Shown: piece by piece, positions 40,606 to 47,601 of the stretch
How the letters are laid out: each line of letters starts with the position of its first letter
How positions within the stretch are numbered: position 1 is the first letter of the stretch
Source of the DNA: an uncultured candidatus Porisulfidus sp.
GTDB taxonomy: Bacteria > Pseudomonadota > Gammaproteobacteria > Poriferisulfidales > Poriferisulfidaceae
DNA: 64,000 nucleotides
Assembly: GCA_965116525.1 (NCBI GenBank)
Contig: OZ220694.1
Span: 758,702-822,701, forward strand
Direction of reading: 5' to 3'
Notes under the pieces: generated by a model
Database searches by the model: none
Seen by the model: the letters and a program-made list of their open reading frames with translations, nothing else
Told to the model about the DNA's origin: nothing
Position numbers and translations under genes: made by a program

Positions 40606-41100
40606 TCAAGCCGGATTTTTCGGGGTGTCCACCTCGCGCAGGGTGCAGACGGCAGGGCCCAAGTCCCGCCAGGAGCCGCAGTCCACATCCAGACGCACCA
40701 CCGCACAGGTCGGGAGGTCTCCCAGAATTTCATTGGCCAGATACTCGGCAACCCCGCTGGTCGCAGGGTTGTGGCTGAAGACCGCGACCCGGTCAGCGGC
40801 ATCGTCCAGTTCGCGCAATTCGCGCAGCAGGTCATTAGGCGAGAAGGTGTAGAAGCCTTTCCGCAGACGGATGTCCTCCGGATCCATCCCTAGGGCTGAA
40901 GCGAAATGGCCTGCGGTGTCTAGCGCCCGGCGCGCAACCGAACTGTACAGGGCGTCGATGCCCTCTTGACGATCCGCCAGCCGTCGCCCCATTTCCGGCG
41001 CATCCCGCTCCCCTCGCGGGGCGAGCGGGCATTCGACATCCGGCATACTCCGATCACTGCGATCGGACTTGGCGTGGCGGATGAGAATCAGTTGGCGCAC
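40606..41100 (-). CDS. Histidine-phosphatase superfamily protein (SixA-like phosphohistidine phosphatase)
   Basis: 164-aa protein whose N-terminus LILIRHAKS carries the catalytic RHA/G motif, with a later FSHNP (catalytic His) block. Confidence 0.6.
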   Translation of the reverse strand: MRQLILIRHAKSDRSDRSMPDVECPLAPRGERDAPEMGRRLADRQEGIDALYSSVARRALDTAGHFASALGMDPEDIRLRKGFYTFSPNDLLRELRELDDAADRVAVFSHNPATSGVAEYLANEILGDLPTCAVVRLDVDCGSWRDLGPAVCTLREVDTPKNPA

Positions 41101-41160
41101 AGGAACAAAATCTAGATTAATGACGGCTCATCATACAAGCACGATGGTACGGTTGGATGC

Positions 41161-42012
41161 TCAACGCAGATCACTGGCCAAAGTCGCCAGCACCTGGTCA
41201 CAAGCGACTAGCCCCCACAGATGCCCGACCTTCGGAATGATCGTCAGATAGGAACCGGGGAACATGCGCGAGTAAATAAACGCGGCTTTCGGCACGATCA
41301 CCTTGTCCTCCGCCCCGTGCCAGATCCGCACCGGCGCATCCAGCGCGATCGGCGAAGGAGGGCTTTCGCGATAAAAGTTTCTCGCTTCGAGAGCGGTCGC
41401 GCGCCCACTCCAAAGGACCCCGGCAATGCCCTTGGTGAGGCACCGGCGGATTTCCCGGTCTTTCATAGTCTGTCGATCGCTGTGATTGAGGCCCGGCCCA
41501 ATCAGGAGCCGGGAAAAATTAGGTGCAACGACTGCAGGAATCGCGATCGCCAGAAACATCAATTGAGCTATCGGAATGCTGGCATTGGCCAGTTTCATCA
41601 ACGCCCGGTGCCCCGGACCGGGTTGCACGCCCTGCACGTGCGCGCTGACCAGAGTCAAGGCCCGAATGCGATGCGGCACCTGCCTGGCTGCTTCTGCCGT
41701 ATAGGGACCTCCCCCGGAAAAACCGAATACCGCGAACTTCTCCACCCCGAGATAATCCAGCAACGCCATGGCATCCTCGACATGTCCCGCAATGCTGTGA
41801 TCGGGGCGGTCCTCCGAATCCCCAACCCCTGCCCGGTCCGGTACGACCATGCGGAGTCCATGCTTGCGGGCCGAAGCATCGGCGAGCGAGAAGATATGCC
41901 GGGTTCCCGGCGTGCCGTGCATACCCAGGACCGGGATGCCGTCGGAGTCCCCGTATTCGGCATAGGCCAGCATCCGCCCGTCCGGCAGCCTCATGCTTAA
42001 ATTTTCATTCAT
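41161..42012 (-). CDS. Alpha/beta-fold hydrolase
   Basis: 283-aa protein with the nucleophile elbow GFSGG and a C-terminal catalytic His (GHLW). Confidence 0.7.
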   Translation of the reverse strand: MNENLSMRLPDGRMLAYAEYGDSDGIPVLGMHGTPGTRHIFSLADASARKHGLRMVVPDRAGVGDSEDRPDHSIAGHVEDAMALLDYLGVEKFAVFGFSGGGPYTAEAARQVPHRIRALTLVSAHVQGVQPGPGHRALMKLANASIPIAQLMFLAIAIPAVVAPNFSRLLIGPGLNHSDRQTMKDREIRRCLTKGIAGVLWSGRATALEARNFYRESPPSPIALDAPVRIWHGAEDKVIVPKAAFIYSRMFPGSYLTIIPKVGHLWGLVACDQVLATLASDLR

Positions 42013-43069
42013 GGCCGGCCAAACACTCCAGATATTTCTTGATCGGCTGGGCGACCGGTTCGATCCGTCGGCGCATGACCGACCCTACTGCATCGCTCAC
42101 GCCGAAAATCGGGTCCAATAACCGCTCCCCGACCCGGGCCAGGCACAGCACAGAACGGCGGAATTCGGAGAAGTCCGGGTTCTTCTCCCACGAAGCCTGA
42201 GCCGGAAAAGCATCAGCGTCTCCTTCGAGTTCGCCCAATGTCCGGAACGATGCATCCGCTCCGGGCAGGGAAAACCCCCGCCCGACCGCATTCAGCAAGG
42301 CGACCACCACGTCCTGGTTGGGCGGGCGCGCAAGCGCCTTTTGGGCGGCCGCGAGAAAACCCTGCCCGGATGCATCGAGAGCCCATAGCAGGCGTTGCGC
42401 AAGGGGGCCTTCCGCGTCCGGGCCGATCCCTGCCCGGACCTCTTCCAGTTTCGGATGCGGCGGGTATGCTTCCGGCAAGCATTCGGCACCTGCCGACAGA
42501 AAACCGACCATATAGGCAGACTGGCGCTGAGCACGCTGCCACAAGGCAGACCGCTGTTCCTCCGTCAACGACGGGTGACGCAGCAGACGCTGCAGCGATG
42601 CAATGATGTCGCCGGGCCGCTCCTCGAACGGCAGGAACTCAAGGAGAAACTCCACCAGCGTCGCGCCCAGCGCACTGTCGGCAACAGCCGGGCTGTCCAG
42701 CATTCGGCGGGCGTGCTCGGAATTCGGTTCCACCCACCAGGCCCGTCGCGCGAGCTCCTCCGTCAGCCCCGGCGCATGGACCACCGCCGCCACCGCTTCC
42801 GGTTCGCCCAGCAACAACAATCGCTCCAGCGAGCCGTCGTCGCGCGCCTGACCCATCCGGGTCCAGCGACGGATGTACAGCGGGTAACCGCCCGGAGAGC
42901 CCAGGATCCGGGTGGACAACAAAGCGCGCACTTCGCGCAGGTAGGACTCCGGGCGCGTATTCGGGTGCAACGCCACCCGCGCTTCGCCCTGCTCGGTTAA
43001 GGCCTCCAGACGCATCCGTGATTCATCAATGCGCACCGCCTGCAACGGCTGGGTCAACAGCACGTTCAT
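42005..43069 (-). CDS. Hypothetical alpha-helical protein (354-416 aa; start uncertain)
   Basis: Long ORF co-directional with, and immediately downstream of, the VWA gene. No family was recognised. The internal start MNVLLTQPL (43069) avoids a 150-nt overlap with the VWA gene. Confidence 0.35.
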   Translation of the reverse strand: MNVLLTQPLQAVRIDESRMRLEALTEQGEARVALHPNTRPESYLREVRALLSTRILGSPGGYPLYIRRWTRMGQARDDGSLERLLLLGEPEAVAAVVHAPGLTEELARRAWWVEPNSEHARRMLDSPAVADSALGATLVEFLLEFLPFEERPGDIIASLQRLLRHPSLTEEQRSALWQRAQRQSAYMVGFLSAGAECLPEAYPPHPKLEEVRAGIGPDAEGPLAQRLLWALDASGQGFLAAAQKALARPPNQDVVVALLNAVGRGFSLPGADASFRTLGELEGDADAFPAQASWEKNPDFSEFRRSVLCLARVGERLLDPIFGVSDAVGSVMRRRIEPVAQPIKKYLECLAGHE

Positions 43070-43101
43070 ACGCAACAGGTCGGGTTCAGCCAGCACTGCG
43101 A

Positions 43102-44238
43102 TCAATTCAGCTGGATTCTCTCGCCCCACGGCACGGGTGCGCGGCCCTTGACCAGCCACAGCACCGGGTAAGGCGGCTCGGTATCCGGGTAACGGCCTTG
43201 GGCATCCGTGAAGTACAACAGCAGGTCTGGCATGCGGTCCTGGCGATTCACCCATTCGAAGACCGGGCGAAACGAAGTGCCGCCGCCGCCACTGACCTGG
43301 GTCGGCGCCTCCAGTGTCTCCCAGGGCTCAAACACTTTCGGGCCCCCCGAGGACAGTTCCTGGTCGCATGCCAGCAGCGTGATGCGGGCGCGCAAGGCTC
43401 CCTTGATCGCGTTGACCTCGCCGACGAATTCCGCGATCTCGGCATCCGAGACCGAACCGCTGACGTCCAGCGCGGCCACAAGATCGACTTCACGGCCGCG
43501 AAGGCTCGGGTAGATTGCGGGTCCTTCCCGGCGCGTGGACGTGCGCTGGTAACTGTAGTCGTCGCGTGCCAGTGCGCCGGTATGGCGGGCGAGCAGTTGC
43601 CGCCACGGCAAACGCGGGATCAGTTGCGGGGAAAAATGCCGCTCGAAGCTCTCGGACAGCCGCCCGGCCTGCCGGGTCGCATCCAGAGCGCGTGAAACCC
43701 GGGCCTGCCAAGTAGCCGCCATGGCGTTCTGCTTCGCCGAACTGAGGGGGCGGGGTCCGGCCGCTGGATCCTCGCGGCCCGACGAATCACTGTACATATG
43801 CAGGTCCTGAGTCCGCTTGTCCTCCATTTCGTCGAGACAGGGGTAGATTTCCTCCGCAGTGAGATCCGAGAACTTCGGTTCGTACAAGGCACCCTGGGGG
43901 AGCATCATGTCCTCGGCGACCAGCAGGCAATTCACCGCATAGTCGCAGGCGACATCCCAGCGTCCCCGGACTCGATGGCCTTTCCGGTGCAGGTGCAGCA
44001 GCGCGCAGTGAAGGGCCTCGTGACAGAGCACCGACTGGACTTCCTCACCGGTCAGGCGGTCGATATAGGCAGGGTTGTAGTAGAAATTCTGCGTATCGGT
44101 CGCCGTGGTCCGGCACCAGTCCTCCCCTTCCACCAGCGGCAACTGTAAAACCAAGGCGCCGAGAAAAGGCCGGTCCAAGACCAACCGGGTGCGGGCCTGC
44201 GCCAGTCGGGTCTTCGCGTCGCGCGCCGCGGGCATCAA
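43102..44238 (-). CDS. VWA-domain protein with N-terminal DUF2201 putative metallopeptidase-like domain (MoxR partner)
   Basis: 378-aa protein. The N-terminal region has an HExxH-like motif (LCHEALHCALLH). The C-terminal region is VWA-like with a MIDAS-type DxSGS motif (LDVSGSVSD). It has a 4-nt overlap with the upstream AAA+ gene. Confidence 0.65.
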   Translation of the reverse strand: MMPAARDAKTRLAQARTRLVLDRPFLGALVLQLPLVEGEDWCRTTATDTQNFYYNPAYIDRLTGEEVQSVLCHEALHCALLHLHRKGHRVRGRWDVACDYAVNCLLVAEDMMLPQGALYEPKFSDLTAEEIYPCLDEMEDKRTQDLHMYSDSSGREDPAAGPRPLSSAKQNAMAATWQARVSRALDATRQAGRLSESFERHFSPQLIPRLPWRQLLARHTGALARDDYSYQRTSTRREGPAIYPSLRGREVDLVAALDVSGSVSDAEIAEFVGEVNAIKGALRARITLLACDQELSSGGPKVFEPWETLEAPTQVSGGGGTSFRPVFEWVNRQDRMPDLLLYFTDAQGRYPDTEPPYPVLWLVKGRAPVPWGERIQLN

Positions 44239-45281
44239 TCGTAAACCAGCAGCTCCGCGACCTGATCCGCCCAGGGCTTGAATTCCGGCGCGCTGAACAC
44301 CGGCTCTTCCCCGACCCCGCGCAACAGGTCGCAGACCAGCATGACGCCGATCTCGCGTTGCGGAAACCGTCCGGCGTAAGTCAGGACCGGACCCAACACC
44401 CCATCGAGCTTCGACTCCTTCTTAGCGCGCACTGCTCGGCCGACCAGTGCGGCAGCCACGGCGTACTGCAGATCCACCGATTCCGGAATGGTCGTGTCCT
44501 TGCCTGCCAACACGTCGTCCAGGTCCGGCAATTCCGCGGCGTGCTGAACGAAGGCATTCAACTGCATCCCCGCGGCCGGTCCCACACAGGCCTGAAGCGC
44601 TTCACCCAGCACCGAGGGGTCGGATTCGAACTTGTGCAGCGCCCGGTGCGCGAACTCCCAGGATCGCGGGGTGGGAAACGCGCTGGGATTGTGCTCGGCG
44701 TCGAAGTCGAACAGAAGTTCCGGGCGCAGCCGCAGAAAACCGATCACCCGATCGTCAATCCCCTCTCCGTAGGCCCATTGCACCCAGTCGTCCAAGTGTA
44801 CGTCGAGCTCAAAGTGCGAGAATCGGTTGGCAAGCGGCGAAGGCATCACATAGGTCACGCCGCGGTCGCCCTGCCGATTGCCGGCCGCAAAGATGGCCCA
44901 ACCGTCCGGCACCTGGTAATGACCGAGCCGCCGGTCCAGAATCAACTGGTAGGCGGCCGCGGAAACAGTCGGCGCAGCCGAAGTGATTTCGTCCAGAAAC
45001 AGGATTCCGTTCGGTCCGTGGCGGTCCACATTCGGCAGCATGGCCGGAATCGCCCAATCCACCGTGTCGTCCACGCGAAAAGGTATGCCGCGCAAGTCGC
45101 TCGGCTCCATCTGCGACAGGCGGATATCAATCATCGGCGCCGTATGACGGTCGGCGACCTGCGCCACGATCTGCGACTTGCCCACGCCGGGTGGCCCCCA
45201 GATCATGGCCGGCGTGTGGTGTCCCTTAGCCGCGCTTCGGAACTCCTCTTCCAGTACTCGGGCCAGTTGAGACGGACGCAT
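44235..45281 (-). CDS. MoxR-like AAA+ ATPase (AAA_5 family)
   Basis: 348-aa protein with Walker A (GPPGVGKS), Walker B (ILFLDEI) and sensor regions. The architecture is typical of MoxR/CbbQ-type ATPases. Confidence 0.8.
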   Translation of the reverse strand: MRPSQLARVLEEEFRSAAKGHHTPAMIWGPPGVGKSQIVAQVADRHTAPMIDIRLSQMEPSDLRGIPFRVDDTVDWAIPAMLPNVDRHGPNGILFLDEITSAAPTVSAAAYQLILDRRLGHYQVPDGWAIFAAGNRQGDRGVTYVMPSPLANRFSHFELDVHLDDWVQWAYGEGIDDRVIGFLRLRPELLFDFDAEHNPSAFPTPRSWEFAHRALHKFESDPSVLGEALQACVGPAAGMQLNAFVQHAAELPDLDDVLAGKDTTIPESVDLQYAVAAALVGRAVRAKKESKLDGVLGPVLTYAGRFPQREIGVMLVCDLLRGVGEEPVFSAPEFKPWADQVAELLVYD

Positions 45282-45287
45282 ACGCGA

Positions 45288-45713
45288 TCAGAACCCGGCT
45301 TGCTTGTACAAGGCGCGGGCGCGCTCCACGTCTTGCGGCACTAGCGTCCCTTCCTCGTACATCATGGCCAACGTAGTCAGCGAGCCGGCCAAGCCCTGAG
45401 CCGCCGCCTTTTCGTACCAGTACACGGCCTTTTCTCCGTCCTGCTCAACGCATTCGCCTTCCATGTACATGAACCCCAACCCGTGTTGCGCCAGCGCCAG
45501 ACCTGCCTCGGCCGCCGCAGTCATCCAGATCAAAGCCCGTTCGGCATCTACCACGCACCCCAATCCATTCTGGTACATAATCGCGCATCGGTACTGAGCC
45601 TCCGGGTCTCCCGCCTCGGCCAGCGGCGTCAACAACTGCAGAGCGCGCGCAAACTGCTTGGACGCGAACGCCGAGATGCCGCTTTCCAGGCTCAGTTGAG
45701 TCGATTCATCCAT
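45288..45713 (-). CDS. Sel1-repeat (TPR-like) protein
   Basis: Three or four Sel1 repeats (AQYRCAIMYQNGLGCVVDAERALIWMTAAAEAG..., AQHGLGFMYMEGECVEQDGEKAVYWYEKAAAQG...). Confidence 0.6.
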   Translation of the reverse strand: MDESTQLSLESGISAFASKQFARALQLLTPLAEAGDPEAQYRCAIMYQNGLGCVVDAERALIWMTAAAEAGLALAQHGLGFMYMEGECVEQDGEKAVYWYEKAAAQGLAGSLTTLAMMYEEGTLVPQDVERARALYKQAGF

Positions 45714-45718
45714 GGCCG

Positions 45719-46813
45719 TCACGAACCCGCTTCGAAACGCGCCCGCGCCCGGCCACTGTCGATGGCCTCGCAAACGCTTGGGTAATGCCGCCGGATATCC
45801 CGGCTTCCGTCAAGATGCGCCAGAATCATCGCTGCCGCGTACTGCAGGCTGTCTTTCGCCGGCCCGGCCTGTCCGGCCAATGCCTCAAACCCGACCTCGG
45901 CGGCCGCCTGCGCCACCTGCTCCCCTGACAGGTCGGCATCCGGCAGGGGCACCGCGCGGCTGTCATGCGTGAAATCCAGATCGTCGGCGTGGAAGTCCCA
46001 CTCCGACTCTTCCTCGTCCCCATGGAACCCGAACGCCTTCCCGGCCTGCTTGAGCGAGGGGAACACGCCACCCTCCACGCCGCGCACGATCAGTGCGGAA
46101 GAAAACCCTGCGGCACGGGCCAGATGCGCATACACCGGCGGGTAGGGCTTGTGCACATAGCCGGTGACCAAATGGGTGGCGTCGCGGCCGCGCACCGGCG
46201 CGAGCAGCACTTCCACCGTCGTCAGCACCGGACGCTTGACGATGCGGGTGCGGAGTTCCAGCAACTGGTGCAAGGCAGGACAGAATTGCGACTGGTCCAC
46301 GTAGCTCCAGCCGCACTCGGCATCCCCCACCCGTGCAGCCGCTTCCGCGGTCGTGCGGTCCACGTTCGCGCCGCAGGCCCGCAGGATCTGTCGCGGCGTC
46401 ACCCCGAACTTCGGGCCGACCGCCTCGGCGCCATGGCAGATCGCCGGCACCCCGCAGGCGCTCAGCACGGCCGGCAGGAACGCTCCGACCGGCAGCCCGC
46501 GCACGAAACCGTCATACGGTTCCGCCACATCCACAACCTGCGCAACATCCGCCACGACCGATTCGGTGTGGTCGCGAAGCGCCTCCAGCGAACCGGTGTT
46601 TTCTTCCAGAGTCTCCCGCTTCATGCGCAACGCAATGAAGAAGATCCCCGCCTGTACCGGGTCCGCCTGACCGTCCAGAATCAGGTTTAATGCCGCTCGC
46701 GCCTCTTCTTGCGGGAGATCCTTGCTGTACTCGGGCCCGGTCGCAATACGCTGCAGAACGCTGCGCATGAAGGCTTGCGGTTCAGTCTGCACGACGGAGG
46801 CCAGATCGCTCAT
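45719..46813 (-). CDS. TrpD2 / YbiB-like (anthranilate phosphoribosyltransferase-fold) protein
   Basis: 364-aa protein with a helical N-domain and a Gly-rich nucleotide-binding-like region (GIFFIALRMKRET...) resembling the TrpD/YbiB glycosyltransferase family 3 fold. Confidence 0.5.
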   Translation of the reverse strand: MSDLASVVQTEPQAFMRSVLQRIATGPEYSKDLPQEEARAALNLILDGQADPVQAGIFFIALRMKRETLEENTGSLEALRDHTESVVADVAQVVDVAEPYDGFVRGLPVGAFLPAVLSACGVPAICHGAEAVGPKFGVTPRQILRACGANVDRTTAEAAARVGDAECGWSYVDQSQFCPALHQLLELRTRIVKRPVLTTVEVLLAPVRGRDATHLVTGYVHKPYPPVYAHLARAAGFSSALIVRGVEGGVFPSLKQAGKAFGFHGDEEESEWDFHADDLDFTHDSRAVPLPDADLSGEQVAQAAAEVGFEALAGQAGPAKDSLQYAAAMILAHLDGSRDIRRHYPSVCEAIDSGRARARFEAGS

Positions 46814-46825
46814 CGGTTCTCAAAA

Positions 46826-46899
46826 TGGAGCGGGTGAAGGGAATCGAACCCTCGTTATCAGCTTGGGAAGCTGAAGTTCTACCATTGAACTACACCCGC
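46826..46899 (-). tRNA. tRNA-Gly (anticodon CCC)
   Basis: The reverse complement is GCGGGTGTAGTTCAATGGTAGAACTTCAGCTTCCCAAGCTGATAACGAGGGTTCGATTCCCTTCACCCGCTCCA. This forms a canonical cloverleaf with anticodon loop TTCCCAA, a T-loop GGTTCGATTCC, and a 3' CCA. Confidence 0.85.
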
Positions 46900-46977
46900 T
46901 TGAATTTCTATTCTACTTGCTGCCCTGCCCGCAAAGCACTCCTGTCAGACCGTGGCCGAAACGCACGGATGGGTGCT

Positions 46978-47601
46978 TCAGGGTTTGTCTTCCTCACCGC
47001 TTAGAAGACGGCGCAGGTTCTCTTGGTGCCGATAGACGATCACCGCGCCCAGAAGAAGGCCTGCCAACACGAGGTCCCAGCCCCGGTGCACCGCCCAAGC
47101 ATAGAGCGGCAAGGCGGCGGCAATGGCGATGGAAGCCGCCGAGACCCGTCGGTACAGCGCATAGCCAAGCAGCCAGGTCGCCAACCCCATGGCCAACAAT
47201 ACCGGATTCAATACCGCCATCATTCCGGCCAACGTCGCCACGCCCTTCCCGCCCCGAAAGCGGTAATAGACTGGCCACACGTGACCAATCACCACCATGA
47301 CGCCGGCCACCACGGCTGGCGTCGGCCAAGCAGGCGAAAGGGGCTCCCCGGCAACGTAAAGCGCCAGCGCCACGGCCAGTGCCCCCTTGCCGGCGTCTCC
47401 GGCCAAGGTGGCCACGGCCCATCTCCTGTTTTTGCTGACTCGAAGCATGTTGGTTGCGCCCGGATTGCCGGAACCCTCGGTCCGCGGGTCCGGCAGGCCG
47501 CAAGCCCTGCTTATAATCAAGGCGCTGTTGACCGCGCCGATCAGATAGCTGCCCAGCGCCACACCCAGCAGCATAAGTAGAAAGTGGACTTCAGCACTCA
47601 T
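46978..47601 (-). CDS. plsY: Glycerol-3-phosphate acyltransferase PlsY
   Basis: Conserved LPDPRTEGSGNPGATN and GGKGVAT motifs in a multi-TM protein. The start is taken at MSAEVH; the alternative upstream ATG is at 47619. Confidence 0.8.
   Translation of the reverse strand: MSAEVHFLLMLLGVALGSYLIGAVNSALIISRACGLPDPRTEGSGNPGATNMLRVSKNRRWAVATLAGDAGKGALAVALALYVAGEPLSPAWPTPAVVAGVMVVIGHVWPVYYRFRGGKGVATLAGMMAVLNPVLLAMGLATWLLGYALYRRVSAASIAIAAALPLYAWAVHRGWDLVLAGLLLGAVIVYRHQENLRRLLSGEEDKP

Follow-up and report, generated by a model that had tools for sequence, protein, structure and literature searches.

A cluster of seven genes that begins directly behind a tRNA gene raises the question of whether it was inserted there as a mobile system or belongs to the core metabolism of its host. 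The cluster studied here lies in a 64,000-nucleotide (nt) stretch of contig OZ220694.1 (the window), which comes from Candidatus Porisulfidus, a sponge-associated sulfur-oxidizing gammaproteobacterium of the reverse dissimilatory sulfite reductase (reverse-Dsr) type that serves as outgroup to the SUP05 sulfur oxidizers (PMC9123188). In a scan of one genome per species, the matches among the metagenome-assembled genomes of this group reached up to 99% identity. Seven co-directional open reading frames (ORFs), all on the minus strand and called g1 to g7 below, run with tight or overlapping junctions from the side of tRNA-Gly(CCC) down to position 40606, as the original prediction had described. 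That prediction had further seen in them a candidate nucleoside triphosphatase (NTPase)-based conflict or signaling system with variable effectors, built around a MoxR-like AAA+ ATPase and a VWA protein. Our analysis leads elsewhere. The cluster is a core-genome operon, neither mobile nor a conflict system, and the balance of probability tilts slightly toward its genes for a Sel1-repeat protein, the AAA+ ATPase, the VWA/zincin protein and DsrS forming an ATP-driven accessory module, for assembly or remodeling, of the reverse-Dsr pathway.

Identification of DsrS

The product of the fifth gene, g5 (42005–43105, minus strand; 366 amino acids, aa), had been described as an all-alpha protein without a recognizable family, and it has no match among the Pfam or NCBIfam models. 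A homology search nevertheless gave 4233 homologs, several of which, in Chromatiales, Thiohalophilus and other Gammaproteobacteria, carry the NCBI name "sulfur reduction protein DsrS"; the homologs so named are 47–53% identical to g5 (E about 1e-94 to 1e-103). In GenBank the Thiocapsa bogorovii ortholog of Alvin_1265 is named likewise; Alvin_1265 is the DsrS of Allochromatium vinosum, encoded by the last gene of dsrABEFHCMKLJOPNRS. Going by the names of these homologs, g5 is DsrS, in the same NCBI-named family as the A. vinosum protein. It is like DsrS in being about 41 kDa by size and soluble, with no cofactor motif or signal peptide seen. Its start was corrected to the TTG at 43105, which overlaps the g4 stop codon and gives a length in line with homologs of 362–376 aa.

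The DsrS family is small, and its members have a single domain. Among 1.84 billion cluster representatives, only 525 clusters matched its profile at E <= 1e-3, and the full-length sequences among the 150 best matches are all about 340–400 aa long, with no fusions. The fold is a generic alpha-solenoid, helical-repeat and adaptor-like, and the most conserved motifs, RRWTRMGQ and ARRAWW, are rich in arginine and tryptophan; a PFEE loop is invariant. The family was met here only in genomes and metagenomes of the sulfur-oxidizer type, with named loci in Thiohalophilus, Thiohalobacter, Thiogranum, Ectothiorhodospiraceae, Chromatiales and Sulfuricella. Occurrence in reverse-Dsr sulfur oxidizers and, at other loci, genetic linkage to dsr genes both hold for g5, but it is not the last gene of a dsr operon. 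Unlike A. vinosum dsrS, the Porisulfidus gene lies outside any dsr operon and appears translationally coupled to the VWA/zincin and AAA+ genes. The terminal operon position is not universal, and dsrS is often encoded away from the dsr cluster (PMC5024460, PMC5328954). According to PMC3368242, what DsrS does "is still not resolved", and its gene has a promoter of its own; the protein is non-essential (PMC5944118).

Conservation of the Gene Order in Sulfur Oxidizers

Ahead of g5, and like it on the minus strand, stand g2 (45288–45713; 141 aa), which encodes a protein with three Sel1 repeats (E 5e-29); g3 (44235–45281; 348 aa), a MoxR-like AAA+ ATPase with AAA and AAA_5 matches; and g4 (43102–44238; 377–378 aa), a DUF2201 protein whose N-terminal domain is zincin-like, with HExxH, and whose C-terminal VWA domain carries a metal ion-dependent adhesion site (MIDAS). 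The ATPase/VWA gene pair of the original prediction, overlapping at 44235/44238, is thus present with both domain sets. Domains were called by profile searches against Pfam and NCBIfam, which bore out the earlier domain calls; junctions were taken directly from the sequence. The g2 start is most likely at 45713 and not at 45773, in agreement with the gene call in the near-identical (97%) Porisulfidus genome L083. Gaps of 5 nt between g1 and g2 and of 6 nt between g2 and g3, with overlaps of g3 and g4 (via TTGATG), g4 and g5 (via TTGA) and g5 and g6 (8 nt, ATGAATGA), therefore give g1 to g6 the packing of a translationally coupled operon; a gap of 60 nt separates g6 from g7.

Conservation beyond the genus was followed in two sets of loci. 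The first consisted of 80 species-level DsrS loci with 10-kb flanks, searched by tblastn with the seven proteins, and the second of 80 metagenome loci anchored on the VWA gene, 69 of which had sufficient downstream sequence. Among the DsrS-anchored loci, the order Sel1-MoxR-VWA-DsrS was found in 43 and MoxR-VWA-DsrS, with Sel1 unseen or truncated, in 10; Sel1 and DsrS were directly adjacent in 18, neither arrangement occurred in 6, and 3 loci were too short to judge. A Sel1 gene stands upstream of DsrS, directly or via the pair, in 61/80 loci, and the median gap between the VWA and DsrS genes is about 20 nt. When the VWA gene was the anchor, DsrS lay directly downstream in 42 of the 69 loci. 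The ATPase-VWA-DsrS trio is present in 89 of the 161 pooled loci, from gamma- and betaproteobacteria, the betaproteobacterium Sulfuricella among them with a DsrS that is 40% identical. Since the genes flanking the trio fall into 28 upstream and 23 downstream clusters, the trio stays together amid changing surroundings.

The conserved order is Sel1, MoxR-like AAA+ ATPase, VWA/zincin (DUF2201) protein and DsrS, with the TrpD2/YbiB-like gene as a frequent neighbor. All four core proteins are strongly conserved (for Sel1, across 47 sequences), and no signal peptide was evident in g2. The seven genes had been treated as one unit; this stands for four or five of them, while the hydrolase and SixA-like genes are found beside DsrS only in Porisulfidus.

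In many sulfur oxidizers a larger syntenic block lies upstream of the module and comprises two 2-oxoglutarate (2OG)-Fe(II) oxygenases, a GNAT acetyltransferase, DUF6866 and a 203-aa protein without a Pfam family (examples at L031:1-7000, L045:1707-2762 and L052:6536-7147).

Linkage to the Sulfur Pathway

Outside Porisulfidus, the gene directly after dsrS encodes a CysG-type siroheme synthase in 29 loci or a conserved 180-aa protein without a Pfam family in 30 loci, where Porisulfidus has the hydrolase. Siroheme is a cofactor of DsrAB. In 8 loci dsrA/B is no more than 10 kb away, and 16 loci have dsrC-like genes within this distance. Examples of the downstream genes are L050:11114-12544, L041:11092-12495 and L078:9880-10422, some of them with an intervening small glutaredoxin-like ORF. 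At about 10 loci, EgtB-like (DinB_2 + FGE-sulfatase) and EgtD-like (Methyltransf_33) genes, apparently for biosynthesis of an ergothioneine-type thiol, follow the dsrS/180-aa pair (L026:12511-13803, L063:11690-13984). The genes for DUF6866, the 203-aa and 180-aa proteins, CysG, the 2OG oxygenases, GNAT, EgtB-like and M48-TPR proteins were searched for in the 64-kb window and are absent from it.

The ATPase/VWA pair has other neighbors as well. In 7 of the 69 VWA-anchored loci the VWA gene is followed by an M48-TPR protease gene, with SoxYZ next in three of them, and in 20 by other genes, namely HDOD (at least three), GGDEF, Maf, adenylate kinase (Adk) and Memo. HDOD signaling proteins follow the pair in the metagenome loci L088:7581-8507, L134:8439-9374 and L146:8240-9799. 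In A. vinosum itself the orthologous pair is Alvin_2108 and Alvin_2109 (VWA protein 56% identical); next come genes for an M48-TPR protease with a signal peptide and then for SoxY and SoxZ (CP001896.1, L081:8965-13506), and dsrS sits in the dsr operon. The A. vinosum genome paper groups Alvin_2108–2112 as "sox cluster one" and leaves the first genes uncommented. This cluster thus shares the AAA+/DUF2201 pair with the Porisulfidus operon, but without a preceding Sel1 gene and with M48-TPR and SoxYZ in place of DsrS. The same arrangement of pair, M48-TPR and soxYZ occurs in the symbiont of the tubeworm Lamellibrachia, within 7 kb of dsrAB and dsrC (L085:6369-12333). In both organisms a cytoplasmic ATPase/VWA pair is encoded beside periplasmic Sox genes.

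These neighbors bear on a rival explanation, in which the pair is a general proteostasis or signaling module and its place beside dsrS reflects inherited synteny or shared regulation in one gammaproteobacterial lineage. Such a general role would suit the 27/69 VWA-anchored loci with HDOD, GGDEF, Maf, Adk or M48-TPR/SoxYZ genes beside the pair, the 18 loci with Sel1-DsrS and no pair, and the larger syntenic block around many loci, yet the trio is kept across more than 20 upstream and downstream contexts and into Betaproteobacteria. Start and stop codons that overlap or lie very close together point to translational coupling, and the alternative neighbors soxYZ, dsrC and dsrAB are sulfur-oxidation genes too. 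We regard a general module as rather unlikely, though it keeps a real share of the probability.

The AAA+ ATPase and VWA/Zincin Pair

Walker A, Walker B and sensor motifs mark the AAA+ core of g3, and the neighboring gene encodes a VWA/MIDAS partner, both as expected of the MoxR clade. The matches of g3 to AAA (31.4 bits) and AAA_5 (30.6 bits) exceed the Pfam cut-offs but are weak (E ~1e-7), and the motifs GPPGVGKSQ (Walker A), ILFLDEITSA (Walker B), AAGNRQGDRG and PLANRF are >=90% conserved in 43 orthologs. Neither AAA_3 nor CbbQ_C matched g3, so that no named subfamily (MoxR proper, CbbQ/GvpN/NorQ) is assigned to it, and an exact-sequence look-up of the ATPase returned no record. The nearest sequences with solved structures are NorQ (E 5e-4), CbbQ (E 3e-3) and midasin, in a range of 5e-4 to 5e-3.

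The partner g4 matches both models of the Pfam family described as a "predicted metal-dependent peptidase" with a VWA-like domain, far above their cut-offs (DUF2201_N, 143 bits, E 1.5e-41, cut-off 23; DUF2201, VWA-like, 91 bits, E 6e-26, cut-off 26). Its homologs share both domains, the HEALHCALxH motif of the family is conserved, and the MIDAS motif is intact; the subfamily of g4 differs from DUF2201 at large by its specific sulfur-oxidizer context. In fold, the VWA domain is close to its counterparts in NorD and BchD. No sequence relative of g4 was found among the PDB structures, where a profile of its family matched only the minimal archaeal protein MJ1213, weakly (E 0.19) and in the HExxH region. 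From its motif, the HExxH domain may be a peptidase.

The pair is comparable with the known MoxR-type pairs (CbbQ-CbbO, NorQ-NorD, CoxD-CoxE, RavA-ViaA) and with the chelatases BchI-BchD and CobS-CobT. Like these, g3 and g4 are two overlapping genes for an AAA+ protein and a VWA/MIDAS protein, have intact Walker, sensor and MIDAS motifs, and are encoded beside genes of one metabolic pathway. They differ in their marginal similarity to NorQ and CbbQ and in their helical-repeat partners Sel1 and DsrS. To our knowledge, the VWA partners of the known pairs also lack an N-terminal HExxH zincin-like domain such as that of g4.

Could the pair simply be the ortholog of the Rubisco activase CbbQ/CbbO or of NorQ/NorD, which serves nitric oxide reductase? 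NorQ and CbbQ are the nearest solved sequences, the VWA fold is NorD-like, and the host is presumably an autotroph. The E-values are, however, only 5e-4 to 3e-3 (about 20 bits), there is no CbbQ_C domain, and Rubisco and nor genes are not adjacent; the partner is a 377-aa DUF2201 zincin protein without a PDB relative, not of the CbbO or NorD architecture. Because the similarity of the ATPase is marginal and g4 has no relative among solved structures, the pair is not a CbbQ/CbbO or NorQ/NorD ortholog. The original prediction had named such orthology as an outcome that would refute it; we leave this orthology scarcely any probability.

The zincin-like domain admits a different reading, in which a SprT/Wss1-like zincin, an AAA+ unfoldase and the DNA-binding TrpD2 protein would form a protease for protein-DNA crosslinks or damaged proteins, directed against damage from sulfite produced by Dsr. 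Wss1 is driven by the Cdc48 unfoldase and provides the model, and E. coli ybiB is LexA-controlled. The HExxH motif of g4 is conserved, g1 is YbiB-like, and a SprT-like match lies on the HExxH region, but this match (E 0.003) is below the cut-off and confined to the zinc-binding motif. Against such a protease stand also the structure search, with MJ1213 as its one match, the lack of DNA-repair genes in the conserved neighborhood, and the tight coupling to DsrS, which it leaves unexplained. It is very unlikely.

A Possible Role in the Reverse-Dsr Pathway

How an accessory module of the reverse-Dsr pathway would work is inferred by analogy with CbbQ/CbbO, NorQ/NorD, CoxD/CoxE and BchI/BchD. The AAA+ protein would form a ring and dock the VWA protein, whose MIDAS site, together with the helical-repeat Sel1 protein and the alpha-solenoid DsrS, would select a client from the cytoplasmic Dsr machinery. 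ATP hydrolysis would then remodel the client for assembly, cofactor loading or repair, and the HExxH domain may contribute a proteolytic step. A narrower version, to which we give a minor probability, takes the module as an ATP-driven machine dedicated to the maturation or repair of the reverse dissimilatory sulfite reductase, with DsrS as the adaptor for client recognition. A possible task of such a machine would be the loading or exchange of the siroheme/siroamide-[4Fe-4S] cofactor of DsrAB, much as AAA+/VWA chelatases, NorQD and CoxDE handle metal cofactors. This task is attractive as a candidate because CysG adjoins dsrS, but here we speculate.

Several points weigh against a role in the reverse-Dsr pathway. 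The identity of g5 as DsrS rests on the database names of its homologs. Both sets of loci are the 80 best matches of their scans and not random samples, and their neighbors were called by a naive ORF finder, which gives shadow ORFs in GC-rich DNA. DsrS directly follows Sel1 without the ATPase/VWA pair in 18/80 loci, and the pair stands beside unrelated genes (HDOD, GGDEF, Maf, Adk) in 20/69, so the association is frequent and not obligate. In the 64-kb window, dsr, sox and cysG genes (including dsrAB, dsrC and soxYZ) were not found, and the A. vinosum pair adjoins periplasmic M48-TPR/SoxYZ genes rather than dsrS.

A Core Operon Between Two Variable Spacers

The position of the cluster at a tRNA gene had suggested an insertion point for an island. 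Eight Porisulfidus genomes (loci L001–L007 and L083) were compared, and the block from tRNA-Gly through the hydrolase gene is collinear in every one of them, including one with only 61–78% protein identity. By nucleotide alignment (blastn), window 46922->41160 is collinear in each strain compared, and the block has diverged to a similar degree as the sequence on either side. The guanine + cytosine (GC) content is 0.61–0.65 across the block, the same as in the flanks. As the original prediction had noted, integrase and direct repeat are missing: there is no integrase domain in the seven genes or in the annotated neighbors in L083, and the 3' end of the tRNA is repeated nowhere in the window. 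A tRNA-linked genomic island was therefore rejected.

Collinearity breaks on either side of the block. The spacer between plsY and tRNA-Gly (46923–46986) is a strain-variable insertion site, empty in the window and in L083 and with 1.5–5.2 kb extra in L001–L006. In L005 the insert (L005:1011-6179) encodes an AAA_14/DUF4143 protein, a Fic protein and an N6_N4 methylase with a SmaI-like nuclease, the last two being a type II restriction-modification pair. The second such site is the spacer between g6 and g7 (41101–41160), which is empty in the window, L001 and L003 and holds 3–7.5 kb in L002, L004, L005 and L006. The insert of L002 (L002:11942-19409) carries genes for an HD protein, a methyltransferase-HNH protein, a DNA methylase and an ORC/CDC6-like ATPase with a fused Ser/Thr kinase, and L083 has a DUF433 + PIN_10 toxin-antitoxin pair (L083:12013-13090). 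Inside the L005 insertion in this spacer, the final ~330 bp of the hydrolase gene (window 41160-41487) recur with 93% identity at L005:13508-13834, which suggests that the insertion event duplicated its target. As variable DNA sits on both flanks, the insertion-prone reading is true of the neighborhood and false of the cluster: the tRNA locus is a hot spot in sister strains, and the inserted DNA lies beside the cluster, never within it.

The same comparison bears on an NTPase-based conflict or signaling system with variable effectors, carried by a genomic island at tRNA-Gly. MoxR-VWA pairs reportedly form the cores of conflict systems, according to Kaur, Iyer, Burroughs and Aravind. With the MoxR-vWA ternary systems of these authors the operon shares the AAA+ MoxR-like and vWA core and extra linked genes, and the insertions at the tRNA locus in sister strains would fit, as would weak matches to bpMoxR and to IteA/IetA around the P-loop. 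The bpMoxR match, however, reaches 17 bits against a cut-off of 27, and no PADLOC model matched at E <= 1e-3. The block is found at the same place in every Porisulfidus genome, with flank-like divergence and neither integrase, att repeat nor GC shift, and the variable defense-like cargo is outside it. Unlike the ternary systems, the Porisulfidus operon has no beta-propeller, VMAP or effector domains; its partner genes are constant in about 90 loci, and its distribution is vertical and syntenic in sulfur oxidizers. An NTP-dependent conflict or defense system was accordingly rejected as highly improbable. The outcome that the original prediction had named as refuting it, a conserved core operon of characterized function, came about in part, in that the operon is conserved in relatives and its functions are not already characterized.

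Accompanying Genes

The tRNA-Gly(CCC) gene (46826–46899, minus strand) was found by ARAGORN and matches Rfam RF00005 at 72.9 bits. Only 12 nt (46813-46826) separate its 3' end from the start codon of g1, with no promoter-like site detected between them, and the tRNA and operon may therefore be co-transcribed. The promoter scan of the region returned no promoter-like site at all; ten terminator-like sites were counted against a shuffle mean of 5.6 (sd 2.5), about 1.8 sd above it, none of them relevant to the operon boundaries. In seven Porisulfidus loci, one with proteins only 61–78% identical, tRNA-Gly directly precedes the TrpD2-like gene.

That gene, g1 (45719–46813, minus strand), encodes a 364-aa TrpD2/YbiB-like protein with Glycos_trans_3N and Glycos_transf_3 domains. 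It scores 83 bits with the trpD model (cut-off 199), 95 with the YbiB model NF006005 (cut-off 185) and 168 with its best model, PRK07394 (cut-off 287). Orthology to E. coli YbiB, as an NCBIfam equivalog, was rejected because of the NF006005 score. The PYDG of g1 aligns to the SYNG of YbiB, at the position of the GTGGD of TrpD that binds phosphoribosyl pyrophosphate (PRPP), and by this replaced motif g1 is classed as TrpD2/YbiB type, not as a true anthranilate phosphoribosyltransferase. Public records label its homologs "anthranilate phosphoribosyltransferase", which is probably a misannotation, since PYDG replaces GTGGD and the trpD score is far under the cut-off. A g1-type gene adjoins the module in 31/80 DsrS loci; it shares the strand of the module in Porisulfidus alone and runs in the opposite direction in the other loci.

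Its presence brings up a post-transcriptional module, in which DsrS and the nucleic-acid-binding TrpD2/YbiB-like protein would act on dsr mRNA or ribonucleoprotein and be remodeled by the AAA+/VWA pair. Grimm et al. (Frontiers in Microbiology, 2011) reportedly proposed that DsrS and DsrR contribute to controlling dsr post-transcriptionally. We know of no MoxR/VWA pair that acts on RNA, which counts against such a module. The YbiB-type motif of g1, the deposition of YbiB as "DNA-binding protein", the TrpD2 genes adjoining in 31/80 loci, the Arg/Trp-rich motifs of DsrS and the separate dsrS promoter (PMC3368242) would be in keeping with it. No nucleic-acid-binding fold was detected in the generic alpha-solenoid of DsrS, however, and the TrpD2 gene shares the strand of the module only in Porisulfidus and is missing from most trios. 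We consider such a module improbable.

The last two genes belong to Porisulfidus. The gene g6 (41161–42012, minus strand) encodes an alpha/beta hydrolase of 283 aa (Abhydrolase_1 at 5e-19), follows DsrS only in loci L001–L007 and L083 among the DsrS-anchored loci, and is a Porisulfidus-specific addition to the operon. The 164-aa product of g7 (40606–41100, minus strand) is a SixA-like, branch-1 histidine phosphatase that reaches only the superfamily model His_Phos_1 (1.4e-11); it was rejected as a SixA equivalog at 33 bits with TIGR00249 (cut-off 74.5). Insertions of 1.2–7.5 kb split g6 and g7 in 5/8 Porisulfidus genomes, and g7 is merely the next gene, outside the conserved unit.

Implications

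DsrS, MoxR-like ATPases and the DUF2201 family are each already known. In the searchable literature, no description was found of the Sel1-ATPase-VWA/zincin-DsrS operon or of a role for the ATPase/VWA pair in sulfur oxidizers, in line with the earlier statement that this partner set has no functional assignment, and DUF2201, a family without assigned function, has only four incidental mentions there. What had looked like a tRNA-linked defense island is core metabolism, and the real mobile cargo is in the two adjoining spacers of sister strains.

The operon ties DsrS to an ATP-driven AAA+/VWA machine and thus offers a testable lead on the function of DsrS. A dsrS gene located away from the dsr cluster usually comes coupled to the AAA+/VWA-zincin pair and Sel1, and often to siroheme synthase, and this coupling makes ATP-driven assembly or remodeling of the Dsr machinery a specific hypothesis. 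Since A. vinosum is genetically tractable, Alvin_2108/Alvin_2109 can be deleted. The large DUF2201 family gains a first physiological context. If the module is a maturation machine of the reverse-Dsr pathway, DsrS would thereby acquire a molecular function, and the MoxR/VWA systems a new class of clients.

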